DNA of 64,000 nucleotides, taken from the NCBI RefSeq assembly GCF_048403405.1, contig NZ_CP183129.1; one strand, given 5' to 3'. This document shows positions 1,526 through 5,904 of the stretch, in pieces. Both the position numbers and the translations under genes were made by a program. The number at the start of each line of letters is the position of its first letter. Positions within the stretch are counted from its first letter, which is position 1. The notes below the pieces were generated by a model. The model did not search any database and was not told the DNA's origin. It saw nothing but the letters and a program-made list of their open reading frames with translations. The stretch comes from Escherichia coli (GTDB taxonomy: Bacteria > Pseudomonadota > Gammaproteobacteria > Enterobacterales > Enterobacteriaceae).

Positions 1526-2059
1526 TTATTTGTCAATTCCCCAGCACGCCAGCGCGCTCTCCTGGTCACGCCGTGAGACCTGTCCATAGCAGTTATTTGA
1601 ACGAATACGGCAGTCTCTGCCACCGTCCTTAATCCACCAGCGAATCGCCTCACATGCTCCCCTGCGATCGCCAGCATTAATTCGTCTGTAAAACGTCGAC
1701 GGGAAACACTTACCGGGACCAATGTTGTACGGACAGAATGACGCGATCCCCGCTTTCTGGGGTTCGGTCAATGGCACTTTGATGTTTTTCTCCACCCATG
1801 CCAGCGCCTTATCACGCTCAATGGCGTTAACCCGGTCGCATTTTTCCTTCGACAACTTCATGCCCGGAACGACAGGTTTGCCATCCACCAGGATGGCACC
1901 GCGGCAGATGGTCCAGATACCCGCGCCATCACGGTATGCCGTGGTGTGGTTACCTTCCTTTTCATCCAGAAACTGGTCGAGAATGTCAGGCGCAGGCGCA
2001 CCAGCGGCAATCAGCGCCAGAACGGCAGCCGACAGGCCGTATCTGATTTTTGCGTTCAT
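1526..2059 (-). CDS. SAR-type phage endolysin (T4-lysozyme-like, GH24)
   Basis: N-terminal weakly hydrophobic Ala/Gly-rich signal-anchor-release segment (LSAAVLALIAAGAPAP) then E-x8-D-x5-T catalytic motif (EGNHTTAYRDGAGIWT); paired with a pinholin upstream. Confidence 0.85.
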   Translation of the reverse strand: MNAKIRYGLSAAVLALIAAGAPAPDILDQFLDEKEGNHTTAYRDGAGIWTICRGAILVDGKPVVPGMKLSKEKCDRVNAIERDKALAWVEKNIKVPLTEPQKAGIASFCPYNIGPGKCFPSTFYRRINAGDRRGACEAIRWWIKDGGRDCRIRSNNCYGQVSRRDQESALACWGIDK

Positions 2060-2164
2060 GGATATTTATCAGGATTTATCGGTTTCTGAGCCCTGGATAT
2101 GTTTATCAGTTCCAGCCTGTTGCCTCAGGCTGCTAACAGGTCAATACAATCATGAGGATTATTT

Positions 2165-2437
2165 ATGGACAATAACACCATTTCTCTACAGGAGTTGCTC
2201 GACAGCATTTCCAGGCTTCGGGAAGACGTGAATACCCTTACCGTCGCCTTCTCATATCTGGCATTCTCAATTCCAAGGGAACAGATGCAATCAACGCTGG
2301 CATCAATCCAGTTTGAATCATGCAATCCCAAATGGTCTCAGGAACAACAAGACTCTTTCAGGCGGCTTGCTGTATTACTGGATGAAAAATATGCTGGTAA
2401 AATTACCATTTCGGCGGACTCTTCAGAGAACCCGTAA
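2165..2437 (+). CDS. hypothetical 90-aa protein encoded antisense to the late operon
   Basis: ATG at 2165 with GAGGA Shine-Dalgarno 6 nt upstream; no TM or signal peptide; 3' end overlaps the convergent 114-aa gene by 35 bp. Confidence 0.45.
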   Translation: MDNNTISLQELLDSISRLREDVNTLTVAFSYLAFSIPREQMQSTLASIQFESCNPKWSQEQQDSFRRLAVLLDEKYAGKITISADSSENP

Positions 2438-2747
2438 TTATTCCCGGTAGTTTTCCTCTGTAGGTTATCAACACATCCTGCGCCTCTAAAATTACGGGGC
2501 GCTTTTCCGGCGACTGCTCATCCCCTTCACATAACCCGGCAGCAACATCCAGGAAGACCTGTCTGATGCTCCTTCTGGCTGCTGCCTCATAAAACTCCAG
2601 CGCGGCACCTTCAACACGGTCCAGCGAGATGTCCAGGTCAAAAATTTCACCGTCAAAGCGTTTTTTGTCCCGTAACGCTAAAGTTACCGTAACTTTATTC
2701 TCAAAATTGCGGATCCCTTTCACAATCAGTTTATAGTTTTGAGTCAT
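2403..2747 (-). CDS. hypothetical 114-aa protein between holin and endolysin
   Basis: ATG 4 nt after the holin stop with GGAGAG Shine-Dalgarno; no recognisable domain. Confidence 0.55.
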   Translation of the reverse strand: MTQNYKLIVKGIRNFENKVTVTLALRDKKRFDGEIFDLDISLDRVEGAALEFYEAAARRSIRQVFLDVAAGLCEGDEQSPEKRPVILEAQDVLITYRGKLPGIITGSLKSPPKW

Positions 2748-2751
2748 TGAA

Positions 2752-2967
2752 TTACTCTCCCCGTGCAGCCTTACGACGGTCCTCTCTGATTTTGAAATAC
2801 AGGTTAGTCAGATATGTCAGCAGCCCAAACAGCAGACTCCCCAGCACGCCTATTGCCGCCCACTGAGACGGGGAAACCCTGTCCAGCAACTGCAGGAACC
2901 AGTAGCCCGTTCCCACCGCTGACGTGGTGTATGACACACCTGTTGTGATTTTTTCCATCTGGTACAT
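2752..2967 (-). CDS. class II pinholin (phage 21 S21-like), dual-start motif
   Basis: [10 protein letters not shown]... two closely spaced Met starts; two TM segments; C-terminus ...[22 protein letters not shown] matches S21 as recalled. Confidence 0.8.
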
Positions 2968-3117: not shown

Positions 3118-4971
3118 TTATGATGATGCCGGTGCATTTATCTCCAGCACCAGACTTTCTATCTCAACGCCATACGCTGCATTTTTGGTAATATCCGTCA
3201 GCGTCAGCGCATTCAGCCCCAGTGTCAGACTGTCTTTTATGACCTGGAATGCCGGGCCAGCCACTCCATTCAGTTTCGGAGTAACCGTGGCACTGCCGGC
3301 GGTGAACACCAGCTCCAGCGTCTGCCAGTCGTTACTGTAATTCCCGAACTCGCCCAACTTTGTGTTTCCTGCTTTCTTGTGATGCATCAGATTCAGTTTG
3401 CCGTCTGTGGTCTGGGTGAAGAACGACATCAGGAACGGGTTACCAGTCCCGGTCATCGCCACGACGTCAGGTAACGCTACATCGGTATACAGATAAATTC
3501 CCAGACCGAACTGATTGTTGGTCAGTGCGCCTGACAGTCGAAACTTACAGCTCAGTCTGCCACCCCGTGTCAGCAGGGAGACTGCGTCATCCACCGGGCG
3601 CGTCAGGGACCAGGCTTTATTGCTCTGCTTGGTGATCTTAAATACACCATCTGACAACTGAATTCCGCCATTCTTAATGCTCCAGCCCTGCGCAGCAGCG
3701 TCTCCGGCTGTCGGCAACAGGGAGATTGTGCGTATGGATGCATCTTCAGACGGCCCCGATGGCGTGTCGCCGCCGGGCGAGAGTTTGATTTCCGGTGCCT
3801 TACCACTAATGAAGGCTAAGGTGCGACCGGCTACGTTCAGAATAGCAGTTGCCATACGATCGGGAATAATGCCACGACGCGCCCATGAGCTGAAATGCGT
3901 CGGGCGATTTGATGATACCCAGTTTTTGTTCGTTCGGGATGCCGAACCGTAATAACCAGACCCGACAATATCAGGATCTTCTGACGGGTTGTTTGTCGGT
4001 GTATTAACTCCGCTACCATCGGTCATAAAGGGAACAAAATAAATCTGCTGGGATTCTTTACCTTTATATGCACCATATACCACTTCATATTGCGTACCGT
4101 GTTCTTGTTTCCACGCGTATGTCGTGTCGCCACAAATCCAGGGGACTGATGCCGGACTTCCACCGTGACACTGCGCTGCCAGCCCGGCAAGGTCAGCACG
4201 GAACTGCTGTACCATTGCAAGAAATGCTGCTGGCTGCTGGGCGTAACTGGCATTCGTCATATCGAATTCCCCCTGCATCCAGCATATCGCCAGCAAAACG
4301 TTTTTCGGGTTTTTCTGCAATGCTGCCTTCGTGCGGAAAAGCAGATCCTGATATAACGGCTTACCCACTCCCCAGCGAGCCGAATCCTGACTGGCTCCCG
4401 TGGACTCGCTGAATGTCCCCTCCGTGCCCTGGGTGAATGCCGAACCACCACGACAGCATGGTACCAGCAGGATCCCCGCATTATTAGGGATATACGGAAG
4501 CAGTTTTTTGGCAATATGTAAGCCCTGTCCGACACAGCCGTACTGCCCTTTGCTCAGGTCAGCCCGGGGATGGTTAATCGTACTCATATCCTGAACATCA
4601 TGCAGACAATGGTCAGCAGGAATGATGTCGTTAAATACGCATACTTCACCACCGGGAGTCACTGTGTTACGACGGGCCAGTTGCTTAATGCGCGGATGGG
4701 GCGCATCGTATGAATCCGGAAGCGGAAGCCCTTCACCGTAAGCCATGGCATTGGATTGCCCGGCCAGTACGATGACGTAGTACCACTCCGGCTCAGTTGC
4801 ACCACTGACGACCACATCACCTTCTGCTGCAATCGCCTGCATCAGGGTATAAGGGGTTATGGCCACCGGACTACCAAACGGCTGCCAGCCCTCCTTCAGT
4901 TTTTGTGTCAGTCGTTTCGCAAGGTCTGACGGCGATGCCGCCCTGACCACGTCATAGTGTTTAAATGCCAT
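3118..4971 (-). CDS. nanS: prophage sialate O-acetylesterase (NanS-p-like, SGNH hydrolase)
   Basis: 617-aa protein with GQSN motif (VLAGQSNAMAYG) near N-terminus and long C-terminal beta-rich region; sits between the tRNA cluster and holin as in Stx phages. Confidence 0.75.
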   Translation of the reverse strand: MAFKHYDVVRAASPSDLAKRLTQKLKEGWQPFGSPVAITPYTLMQAIAAEGDVVVSGATEPEWYYVIVLAGQSNAMAYGEGLPLPDSYDAPHPRIKQLARRNTVTPGGEVCVFNDIIPADHCLHDVQDMSTINHPRADLSKGQYGCVGQGLHIAKKLLPYIPNNAGILLVPCCRGGSAFTQGTEGTFSESTGASQDSARWGVGKPLYQDLLFRTKAALQKNPKNVLLAICWMQGEFDMTNASYAQQPAAFLAMVQQFRADLAGLAAQCHGGSPASVPWICGDTTYAWKQEHGTQYEVVYGAYKGKESQQIYFVPFMTDGSGVNTPTNNPSEDPDIVGSGYYGSASRTNKNWVSSNRPTHFSSWARRGIIPDRMATAILNVAGRTLAFISGKAPEIKLSPGGDTPSGPSEDASIRTISLLPTAGDAAAQGWSIKNGGIQLSDGVFKITKQSNKAWSLTRPVDDAVSLLTRGGRLSCKFRLSGALTNNQFGLGIYLYTDVALPDVVAMTGTGNPFLMSFFTQTTDGKLNLMHHKKAGNTKLGEFGNYSNDWQTLELVFTAGSATVTPKLNGVAGPAFQVIKDSLTLGLNALTLTDITKNAAYGVEIESLVLEINAPASS

Positions 4972-5193: not shown

Positions 5194-5202
5194 GTCCATA
5201 AG

Positions 5203-5436
5203 AAAGCCCCTCCGGAGAGGGGCTAAAGCCGCGTATCTGTATCATCATGCACATGGTGCCGGGTGCCTCCCGGTGAGTTCAGCCCGGTGCCACTAAACCC
5301 GCGTCATTCTCGTTTTGATAATCAGAGATTATACCGTCACCAGTCGCCCCTCCGCTCAGGGGGATTCACCATGCGAAATTTTTTTAACAAATGCCCAGTC
5401 TGACAGGCAACTGTCAACTTACTGAATTGTGAGCAA
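5203..5436 (-). repeat. copy 1 of a tandem ~220-bp structured element (candidate sRNA unit)
   Basis: Direct repeat of 5690..5904 (roughly three-quarters identity by eye); shares the hairpins agcccctc-cgga-gaggggct and ggtgccgggtgcctcccggtga; on the minus strand the unit ends in hairpin plus T-tract. Confidence 0.6.
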
Positions 5437-5689
5437 CATAGCATTTAACGGGGAACCTGTTTTCTGCAGTAAAAAGGCCCACCGGAGCGGATGGGCCTGG
5501 AAGGATAGCGGTCATGTGATGCCGGTTTCCCGGTAACTCAGCACCGGTATCTGAGTCAACGTTTTCTCTACTGGGTCATTTCCGATACGCCCTGCCTGCT
5601 GACAGGCTTTCATCACATCTGAAAATATAGCACCCTGACTGATACTGTAGTACCTAAGGTTCCAGAAACTGTGATGTATCCGGCACAGA

Positions 5690-5904
5690 AAAGCCCCTCC
5701 GGAGAGGGGCTGGAGAGTGGCGCTATGTGCCATTGCATGGTGCCGGGTGCCTCCCGGTGAATTCAGTACCAGCACCTGAATCCGCGATTATCCCATATAC
5801 CTACTCGCTGATTGCCCCTCCGCACAGGGGGATTCACCATGCCAGTTTCTTTTAACAAACTCCCCGCAAACCAGACAACAGTCAACCGCCTGAATTGTGA
5901 GACA
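5690..5904 (-). repeat. copy 2 of the tandem structured element
   Basis: Same hairpin set and shared segments (gggggattcaccatgc, tgaattgtgag) as copy 1. Confidence 0.6.

Follow-up and report, generated by a model that had tools for sequence, protein, structure and literature searches.

Morons of lambdoid phages are small, independently transcribed genes that are inserted among the late genes and expressed from the prophage, with HK97 gp15, Cor, Bor and Lom as examples (PMC3594210); the concept is that of Juhala et al. (2000), as reviewed in the same source. Here we compare such systems with a moron-like locus in a 64-kilobase (kb) stretch of Escherichia coli DNA (contig NZ_CP183129.1; this whole stretch is called the window, and all positions are counted in it). 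Within a lysis cassette encoded on the minus strand, a gene for a protein of 90 amino acids (aa), belonging to the Ybl58 family, runs backwards and overlaps the 3' end of a 114-aa gene of the ydfR family. We read the locus, at a probability of roughly 55%, as an S21-type lysis cassette with a late-strand ydfR and a reduced moron of the HK022 gp22/gp23 type, the latter being silenced late by antisense transcription. HK97 gp15, Cor, Bor and Lom differ from this case, as they are membrane proteins or lipoproteins with known roles in exclusion or virulence, whereas the 90-aa protein is predicted to be soluble.

The gp22/gp23 moron of phage HK022 (‘srb protein’), located between the tail genes I and J (NC_002166/AF069308), shares with the window a small backward gene in the late operon that converges on and overlaps a small late-strand gene. 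The promoter regions are colinear (2066-2112 in the window), the presumed transcript start reads TTCAGCC in both, and both loci are extra DNA in comparison with related phages. HK022 differs by a full leader of ~80 nucleotides (nt), scoring 76.7 bits, where the window has the 5' hairpin only; by its position in the tail rather than the lysis module; and by a partner that is not of the YdfR-domain type. The cargo proteins themselves, HK022 gp23 and the 90-aa protein, align with an hhalign E value of 0.007 at a probability of 5%, which is suggestive only. In view of this weak alignment between the two families, a common ‘Srb superfamily’ is not claimed. Literature searches on srb in HK022 and on Ybl58 returned nothing relevant.

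Phage 86, a Shiga toxin 2 (Stx2) phage, resembles the window in the site of its gp05/gp06 pair between ydfR (gp05 is of the YdfR family) and endolysin R, in the promoter region and in the start of the leader. It differs by an unrelated 104-aa cargo (phrog_1853), a full leader, and a YdfR of 268 aa with a long C-terminal extension and no 3' overlap. The K-12 prophage Qin has the same S-ydfR-R order of holin, ydfR and endolysin (essQ-ydfR-rrrQ) and an N-terminal YdfR domain 80% identical to that of the window, but no backward cargo gene; its YdfR has a C-terminus of unrelated sequence, with rrrQ directly overlapping ydfR.

The gene arrangement of a noncontiguous operon, with an opposite-strand gene within the operon, is present in the window. 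For the Tha/Ith system of Staphylococcus aureus phage 80alpha, an antisense gene in an operon and its reciprocal regulation with a defence/inhibitor pair have been demonstrated (PMC11087260). Both loci hold an antisense gene nested in and overlapping an operon, with its own promoter in 80alpha and a candidate one in the window; in 80alpha this leads to mutually exclusive expression in lysogeny and lysis. The polarity there is reversed, the operon being the lysogenic one, the proteins are unrelated, and function has been shown in 80alpha. On the side of the late-strand partner, K-12 YdfR was reported in 2026 to bind RNase E via the catalytic N-terminal half of the enzyme, as seen in two-hybrid and co-purification experiments, residues 1-72 being sufficient for binding RNase E residues 1-597, and to co-purify with DNase-resistant nucleic acid/RNA. 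Its overexpression altered few transcripts, and a genetic screen tying ydfR to envelope integrity is cited in the same work (PMC13232886).

The convergent gene pair in the window

The elements of the locus are as follows.

2066-2104, plus strand: candidate sigma-70 promoter of the cargo gene, with a TATCAGG box, the -35 hexamer TTTATC (2076-2081) and the -10 hexamer TATGTT (2099-2104)
2112-2137, plus strand: 5' leader hairpin with a 7-bp stem (2113-2119/2126-2132) and a 6-nt loop, followed by CTAAC
2154-2158, plus strand: Shine-Dalgarno sequence GAGGA of the 90-aa gene, with a 6-nt spacer to the start codon, invariant in four alleles
2165-2437, plus strand: 90-aa cargo gene of the Ybl58 family (open reading frame list; phrog_2411)
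2122-2396, ~275 bp: insertion/deletion relative to cargo-less S-ydfR-R cassettes in the PhiR49_2 alignment, the right edge being the ydfR stop codon and the left edge fuzzy (about 2090-2121)
2403-2747, minus strand: ydfR-family gene, 114 aa, with an ATG start
2480-2506, plus strand: intrinsic terminator candidate for the cargo transcript, located within ydfR, with the stem 2480-2486/2496-2502 and TTTT at 2503-2506

A preliminary description of this DNA had placed the 114-aa gene 4 nt behind the holin gene with a ribosome-binding site of its own, and the 90-aa gene, likewise with its own site, on the opposite strand in a 35-bp overlap. Both statements were confirmed (gap to the holin stop codon 2748-2751, GGAG upstream of ydfR; GAGGA at 2154-2158; overlap 2403-2437). 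The further claim that neither protein has a recognisable domain is wrong for the 114-aa protein, and the homology and structure searches which that description had called for yielded a family for this protein and only uncharacterised relatives for the other. The 114-aa protein is a YdfR/DUF1327 protein (PF07041, a domain of largely unknown function; Pfam E value 4.9e-42, aligning residues 1-111 with positions 1-91 of the 93-position model) that also matches phrog_406 (E 1.9e-67), and identical proteins are labelled ‘YdfR family protein’ by the Prokaryotic Genome Annotation Pipeline (PGAP). Codons 1-74 (2526-2747) correspond to a beta-beta-beta-alpha domain (AlphaFold2 model, residues 5-74, with a confidence score, pLDDT, of about 75-91), and codons 75-114 (2403-2525) to a predicted disordered tail (76-114 in the AlphaFold2 model) ending in ITGSLKSPPKW. 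The similarity to K-12 YdfR follows the same boundary, with 80% identity and 96% similarity over residues 1-74 and unrelated sequence beyond. Judging from this likeness, the window protein may share the RNase E and RNA binding of its K-12 relative; the fold likeness of YdfR to double-stranded-RNA-binding domains is weak. In general, the N-terminal domain is shared across the family and the C-termini are highly variable, with lengths of 103-268 aa and some proteins running on into a coiled coil. Variants of several lengths were seen (P0109, P0143, P0069, P0096, P0063), some with an internal duplication of the N-terminal domain. Forms of 176/183 aa continue past the PP tail into a coiled coil, and certain ydfR gene calls are holin-domain fusions (PF04971 + PF07041).

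The 90-aa open reading frame (ORF) is a real gene under purifying selection: pairwise ratios of nonsynonymous to synonymous divergence (dN/dS) amount to 0.07-0.35, and the frame stays open in homologues down to about 58% identity. Its last ~12 codons are the antisense of the ydfR 3' end and are predicted to encode a disordered segment. The predicted structure consists of three helices (8-35, 38-52, 59-77) followed by 11 disordered residues. The protein matches phrog_2411, a family of unknown function, over residues 1-90 (E 1.1e-58), and its relatives in sources and clusters are named ‘Ybl58’ or ‘hypothetical protein’. No match was found for it in Pfam, NCBIfam, PADLOC, or the PDB by sequence or fold; a fold search of the AlphaFold database returned only uncharacterised family members (Enterobacterales proteins), and a profile search of 1.84 billion representative proteins only 21 relatives. 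For both proteins of the pair, no match to a defence or toxin-antitoxin model was obtained (no PADLOC hit at E values up to 1), and neither a membrane segment nor a signal peptide is predicted. A transmembrane or lysis-effector role was dropped for lack of a hydrophobic segment.

The candidate promoter of the cargo gene agrees with the consensus at three of six positions in the -35 and four of six in the -10 hexamer. Stx2-86 gp06, HK022 gp23, Salmonella phage SPN3UB gp29 and others have promoter regions colinear with 2057-2112 of the window, the common pattern being TATCAGG(R)T ... CCCTGG(W)TATGTT ... TTC(C)AGCC. At the -10 position, the cargo-less PhiR49_2 reads CAGGTT. The promoter region of the window holds the sequence TTTATC(A/G)G three times (2066-2073, 2076-2083, 2103-2110). 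An operator-like inverted repeat, CAGGGT ... ACCCTG, was noticed in the cassette promoters; its window counterparts are CAGGAT (2071-2076) and CCCTGG (2092-2097), and in HK022 it lies at L333 2415-2455. We know of no regulator of the inverted repeat or of the TTTATC(A/G)G repeats.

A hairpin had been described in the putative promoter region of the 90-aa gene. Its presence is confirmed (2113-2132, 7-bp stem), and the region is indeed colinear with the promoters and leader starts of HK022 gp23 and Stx2-86 gp06. Rather than a promoter element, the hairpin itself more likely represents the first 20 nt, at the 5' end, of the presumed transcript. It aligns with the TTCAGCC at the start of the full leaders of Stx2-86 and HK022, and in the window allele its arms correspond to the two halves of the leader stem P1 (CAGCC/GGCUG, with CTAAC next). 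The pattern CAGCC-N(5-35)-GGCTGNTAAC occurs once in the 64-kb window against 0.02 occurrences expected. The folding energy of 2111-2167 is unremarkable (-13.5 kcal/mol, z = -1.4), and the significance of the hairpin therefore derives from the comparison with related loci, not from its stability. On these alignments, it is probably what remains, in reduced form, of the conserved leader of such cassettes (UCAGCC ... GGCUGAUUAAC), and we do not count it as a member of the full leader family. A role as terminator was discarded, a T-run being found on neither strand. In turn, the hairpin at 2480-2506 (RNAfold -12.9 kcal/mol) is present in other alleles and, by its folding, could terminate the cargo transcript; the consensus scan did not call it, its 9-nt loop exceeding the limit of that scan.

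Extra DNA in comparison with close relatives of the same gene order, and a base composition unlike that of the surroundings, are hallmarks of morons that were both found for the cargo gene. Phage PhiR49_2 holds a closely related S-ydfR-R cassette lacking the 90-aa gene, and the indel of ~275 bp is clean. The G+C content is 0.53 in holin S, 0.55 in R and Rz, 0.45 in the 90-aa gene and 0.41 in promoter and leader; that of ydfR is low too (0.475). Together with the colinearity to the HK022 gp23 promoter, these observations uphold the earlier view of the 90-aa gene as moron-like. The accompanying claim of a pair inserted between pinholin and endolysin stands for the indel with the 90-aa gene, but not for the pair as one obligate insertion, because ydfR is very common and often found without the 90-aa gene. 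Of 5426 complete E. coli genomes, 4255 have the N-terminal coding region of ydfR and 1117 the 90-aa gene (at least 80% coverage), which adjoins ydfR in every match listed. For most related phages, the records align with only 63% of the query, split into two segments, and cargo-less phages also hold the ydfR sequence antisense to the last dozen codons of the 90-aa gene. Between the window and Chlobot/CFT073, the synonymous divergence (dS) is 0 in the N-terminal part of ydfR and 0.33 in the cargo gene, a pattern expected of mosaic exchange. In phiSTEC1575-Stx2k, another lysis module comes after S-ydfR-orf90.

A structured leader with interchangeable cargo

Leader instances were collected by exact-word scans (14- and 15-mers) of viral contigs; the resulting counts are lower bounds, and many chance matches are among the hits. 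Upstream, all phage-borne homologues of the 90-aa gene share a leader that runs from 5'-UCAGCC(C) through the hairpin P2 and the stem P3, whose loop is GGAUGGCUGAUUAA, to the Shine-Dalgarno sequence and start codon. Distant homologues lie backwards in late modules, between the tail genes M and L (L011-L013, L020), near terminase genes (L018/L019) and in short contigs (L007, L008, L016/L017), and each phage-borne one converges on a small late-strand ORF with an overlap of 7-20 bp. The covariance model of the full leader (R1) recovered it at the cargo homologues L007, L008, L011, L016, L018 and L020. Beyond this family, R1 detected the leader upstream of HK022 gp23 (‘srb protein; moron gene product’; 76.7 bits), of SPN3UB gp29 (72.7 bits) and of Stx2-86 gp06 (E 7e-7). 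Considering instances with a downstream ORF of 55-180 aa, BLASTP clustering yielded at least 14 unrelated cargo clusters behind the leader, comprising at least 46 scan instances besides the window gene and Stx2-86 gp06. The clusters submitted to PHROGs matched only families of ‘unknown function’ or none. Among the matches listed, the organisms named in the records of leader cassettes are Escherichia, Salmonella, Serratia, Xenorhabdus and Providencia.

The structure of the leader was tested on 28 long-form instances. Standard pairs fill 93.6% of the paired cells, compared with 21-41% when the partners are slid against each other, and compensatory changes were found in seven of the eight P2 pairs and five of the six P3 pairs (12 of 20 pairs overall). 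RNAalifold independently paired UCAGCC with GGCUGA (P1), forming a pseudoknot with P3. On the cargo strand, 41 G-U pairs stand against 13 A-C cells, which favours an RNA made from this strand. From this covariation, the leader is probably a pseudoknotted RNA. In 31 of 48 distinct cassettes among the matches listed, the end of a -10-like hexamer lies 6-8 nt before TCAGCC, so the leader probably begins at the transcription start; the window transcript would accordingly start near 2111. Rfam 15 gave no match for the leader loci or the window region, and no description of such a cassette was found in the literature by full-text search for the leader core sequence or by keywords. To our knowledge, structured leader RNAs common to mobile phage cassettes are rare. 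One viral contig (L209) carries two leader copies on the same strand (2311-2394 and 3129-3212; 57 and 72 bits), which suggests two cassettes in series.

The late-strand partner recurs as well. Among the matches listed, 53 cassettes have a called convergent ORF, which overlaps the 3' end of the cargo gene in 39 and lies within 35 nt of it in 13 more; a coiled-coil motif of the type LE(E/Q)RV is present in 22 of these 53 partners. Profile matches to the YdfR N-terminal domain were obtained in cassettes found through the leader only (L193/L194 ~1e-18, L101 2e-12, L070 6e-11, L036 5e-9, L096 1e-8), and PHROGs confirmed the YdfR match for both partners submitted, L193 and L036. The association of YdfR with a backward cargo gene thus extends beyond the lysis cassette. 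Nor is it obligatory: most copies of ydfR are cargo-less, and many partners lack the domain. Tail motifs recur by eye among the partners of 90-aa gene homologues; a BLASTP comparison of the YdfR tail with the L008 partner was not significant, and homology of the partner tails is not claimed. A cargo cluster comprising L072, L080 and relatives bears a weak likeness to the YdfR N-terminal domain (E 0.005); were this likeness real, the domain would occur on both sides of such cassettes.

Interpretation of the locus

In the proposed scenario, ydfR is a low-G+C accessory gene that would be read from the Q-dependent late promoter together with holin and endolysin, and the moron cassette would have been inserted backwards at its stop codon. 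The cargo transcript would arise from a weak sigma-70 promoter, start at ~2111 with its first 20 nt forming the hairpin, and end at the terminator within the ydfR 3' end. In the lysogen, the cassette alone would be transcribed, supplying the 90-aa protein as a prophage-expressed accessory factor. Upon induction, Q-antiterminated late transcription would cross the whole cassette in antisense and yield YdfR. Colliding polymerases and the pairing of sense with antisense RNA would silence the cassette. The use of the promoter, the site of transcription start, the terminator, the timing of expression and the function of the protein are inferred. For the 90-aa protein, a function of the arms-race type, e.g., exclusion or defence, appears most likely, as suggested by the free swapping of unrelated cargo behind one leader.

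Several observations weigh against this scenario. The promoter matches the consensus poorly and escaped a generic consensus scan; the folding energy of the hairpin is ordinary, and R1 found nothing at 2100-2165, even unfiltered and at E values up to 10. Other E. coli alleles retain the hairpin without the GGCTG-TAAC resemblance. The 90-aa protein matches no defence model in PADLOC and is without an informative structural relative. As ydfR often occurs without any cargo gene (K-12 Qin, PhiR49_2), functional coupling of the pair is not required. Furthermore, a few distant 90-aa homologues reside in apparently non-phage chromosomal sites lacking leader and partner. These chromosomal homologues are L014/L015 (between dinI and bssS), L021 (adjoining an AIDA-type autotransporter) and L010.

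A possible though doubtful alternative is a defence/self-immunity or effector/neutraliser pair in the manner of Tha/Ith, in which the cargo protein would act in the lysogen and YdfR would neutralise it or target the cargo leader for RNase E cleavage in lytic growth, perhaps through the conserved tail at its C-terminus or through the domain that binds RNase E and RNA. The Tha/Ith precedent (PMC11087260), the recurrence of a convergent partner at different genome positions, the YdfR-domain partners found via the leader alone and the recurring tail motifs agree with it, as do the RNase E and RNA binding of K-12 YdfR (PMC13232886) and the weak resemblance to double-stranded-RNA-binding folds. However, ydfR is mostly cargo-less, many partners are without the domain, the tail similarity lacks statistical support, PADLOC gave no hits and overexpressed K-12 YdfR altered few transcripts (PMC13232886). 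The boldest extension, which we hold to be unlikely, places in the window a degenerate member of a widespread, undescribed cassette system with a conserved promoter bearing an operator-like inverted repeat, a pseudoknotted leader, swappable cargo and a convergent late-strand partner of YdfR or coiled-coil type, where YdfR, RapZ-like, would recognise the leader RNA or the sense/antisense duplex of the overlapping 3' ends and deliver it to RNase E. If true, the lysogeny-phase factor of the prophage would be destroyed once the late genes switch on; an action of YdfR on cassette RNA through RNase E is attractive but speculative.

It is quite unlikely that both genes are lysis accessory factors tuning holin triggering or endolysin release, with their position reflecting their function. 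They do lie inside the lysis cassette, with ydfR 4 nt from the holin gene; S and ydfR stay together where the endolysin module is replaced (phiSTEC1575), and a screen cited in PMC13232886 links ydfR with envelope integrity. Yet the two proteins lack membrane segments and signal peptides, the 90-aa gene runs against the lysis genes, and both the cargo family and YdfR-like partners turn up in tail and packaging modules remote from lysis genes; many S-R cassettes function without either gene. Very improbable in our view is an incidental 90-aa frame, in which case the product would be an RNA antisense to the junction of ydfR and R, or the ‘leader’ a DNA recombination linker for cargo swapping. This reading would fit the mosaic junctions at the leader start and the ydfR stop codon, the identity of the N-terminal part of ydfR between alleles whose cargo differs at a dS of 0.33, and the at least 14 cargo families behind one leader. 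Against it stand the dN/dS values of 0.07-0.35, the frame kept open to 58% identity, the conserved Shine-Dalgarno sequence, and the compensatory changes and the 41 G-U versus 13 A-C cells, which indicate RNA folding. A linker role is moreover compatible with an antisense-silenced moron and does not replace it.

The locus itself is common and already annotated; the interesting part is its membership in a conserved class of structured-leader cassettes with a recurrent YdfR-type partner. Roughly one in five complete E. coli genomes, that of uropathogenic CFT073 among them, and some Stx phages carry the pair of the 90-aa gene and ydfR. Placing it in the HK022 class turns an anonymous ‘hypothetical protein’ into a member of a recognisable cassette class with interchangeable cargo, and the conserved leader could serve a systematic search for prophage-expressed accessory genes. 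The recurrent YdfR-type partner further provides a concrete genomic context for the reported YdfR-RNase E interaction.

Neighbouring genes of the lysis module

The surrounding features are listed below.

3118-4971, minus strand: carbohydrate esterase of the SASA family (NanS-p-like), 617 aa, directly upstream of the holin gene
3035-3007, minus strand: terminator-like hairpin between esterase and holin
2752-2967, minus strand: class II (S21-like) holin, first lysis gene (ORF list; PHROG holin families phrog_9876 and phrog_20)
1526-2059, minus strand: endolysin R, next late gene (PHROG endolysin phrog_7; PGAP ‘lysozyme’)
1187-1402: small ORF between R and Rz, 71 aa (phrog_1115)
1041-1172: small hydrophobic ORF between R and Rz, 43 aa (phrog_4906)
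571-1044 and 633-818: Rz/Rz1

In the direction of late transcription on the minus strand, the order is thus esterase, terminator-like hairpin, class II holin, 114-aa ORF, endolysin, two small ORFs and Rz/Rz1. Based on PHROG and PGAP assignments and the sequence, the cassette has the make-up of the pinholin/signal-anchor-release (SAR) endolysin type of phage 21, namely a class II holin of ~71 aa followed by a lysozyme with a putative N-terminal SAR segment. The PGAP label of the holin in identical loci is ‘class II holin family protein’, and the N-terminus of endolysin R is hydrophobic and signal-anchor-like (MNAKIRYGLSAAVLALIAAGAPAP). A strong terminator-like hairpin (1435-1403, minus strand) lies immediately 3' of the endolysin gene, and the region 1041-1435 looks like a second insertion in the lysis cassette. 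The position of the esterase directly 5' of the holin is an arrangement as in Stx phages. Upstream of the esterase, the small RNA family STnc100 (RF02076) was found three times on the minus strand (5194-5403, 5469-5642 and 5681-5871, with 165, 30 and 136 bits); these copies adjoin a tRNA cluster (tRNA from ~5950) between the antiterminator gene and the lysis genes.

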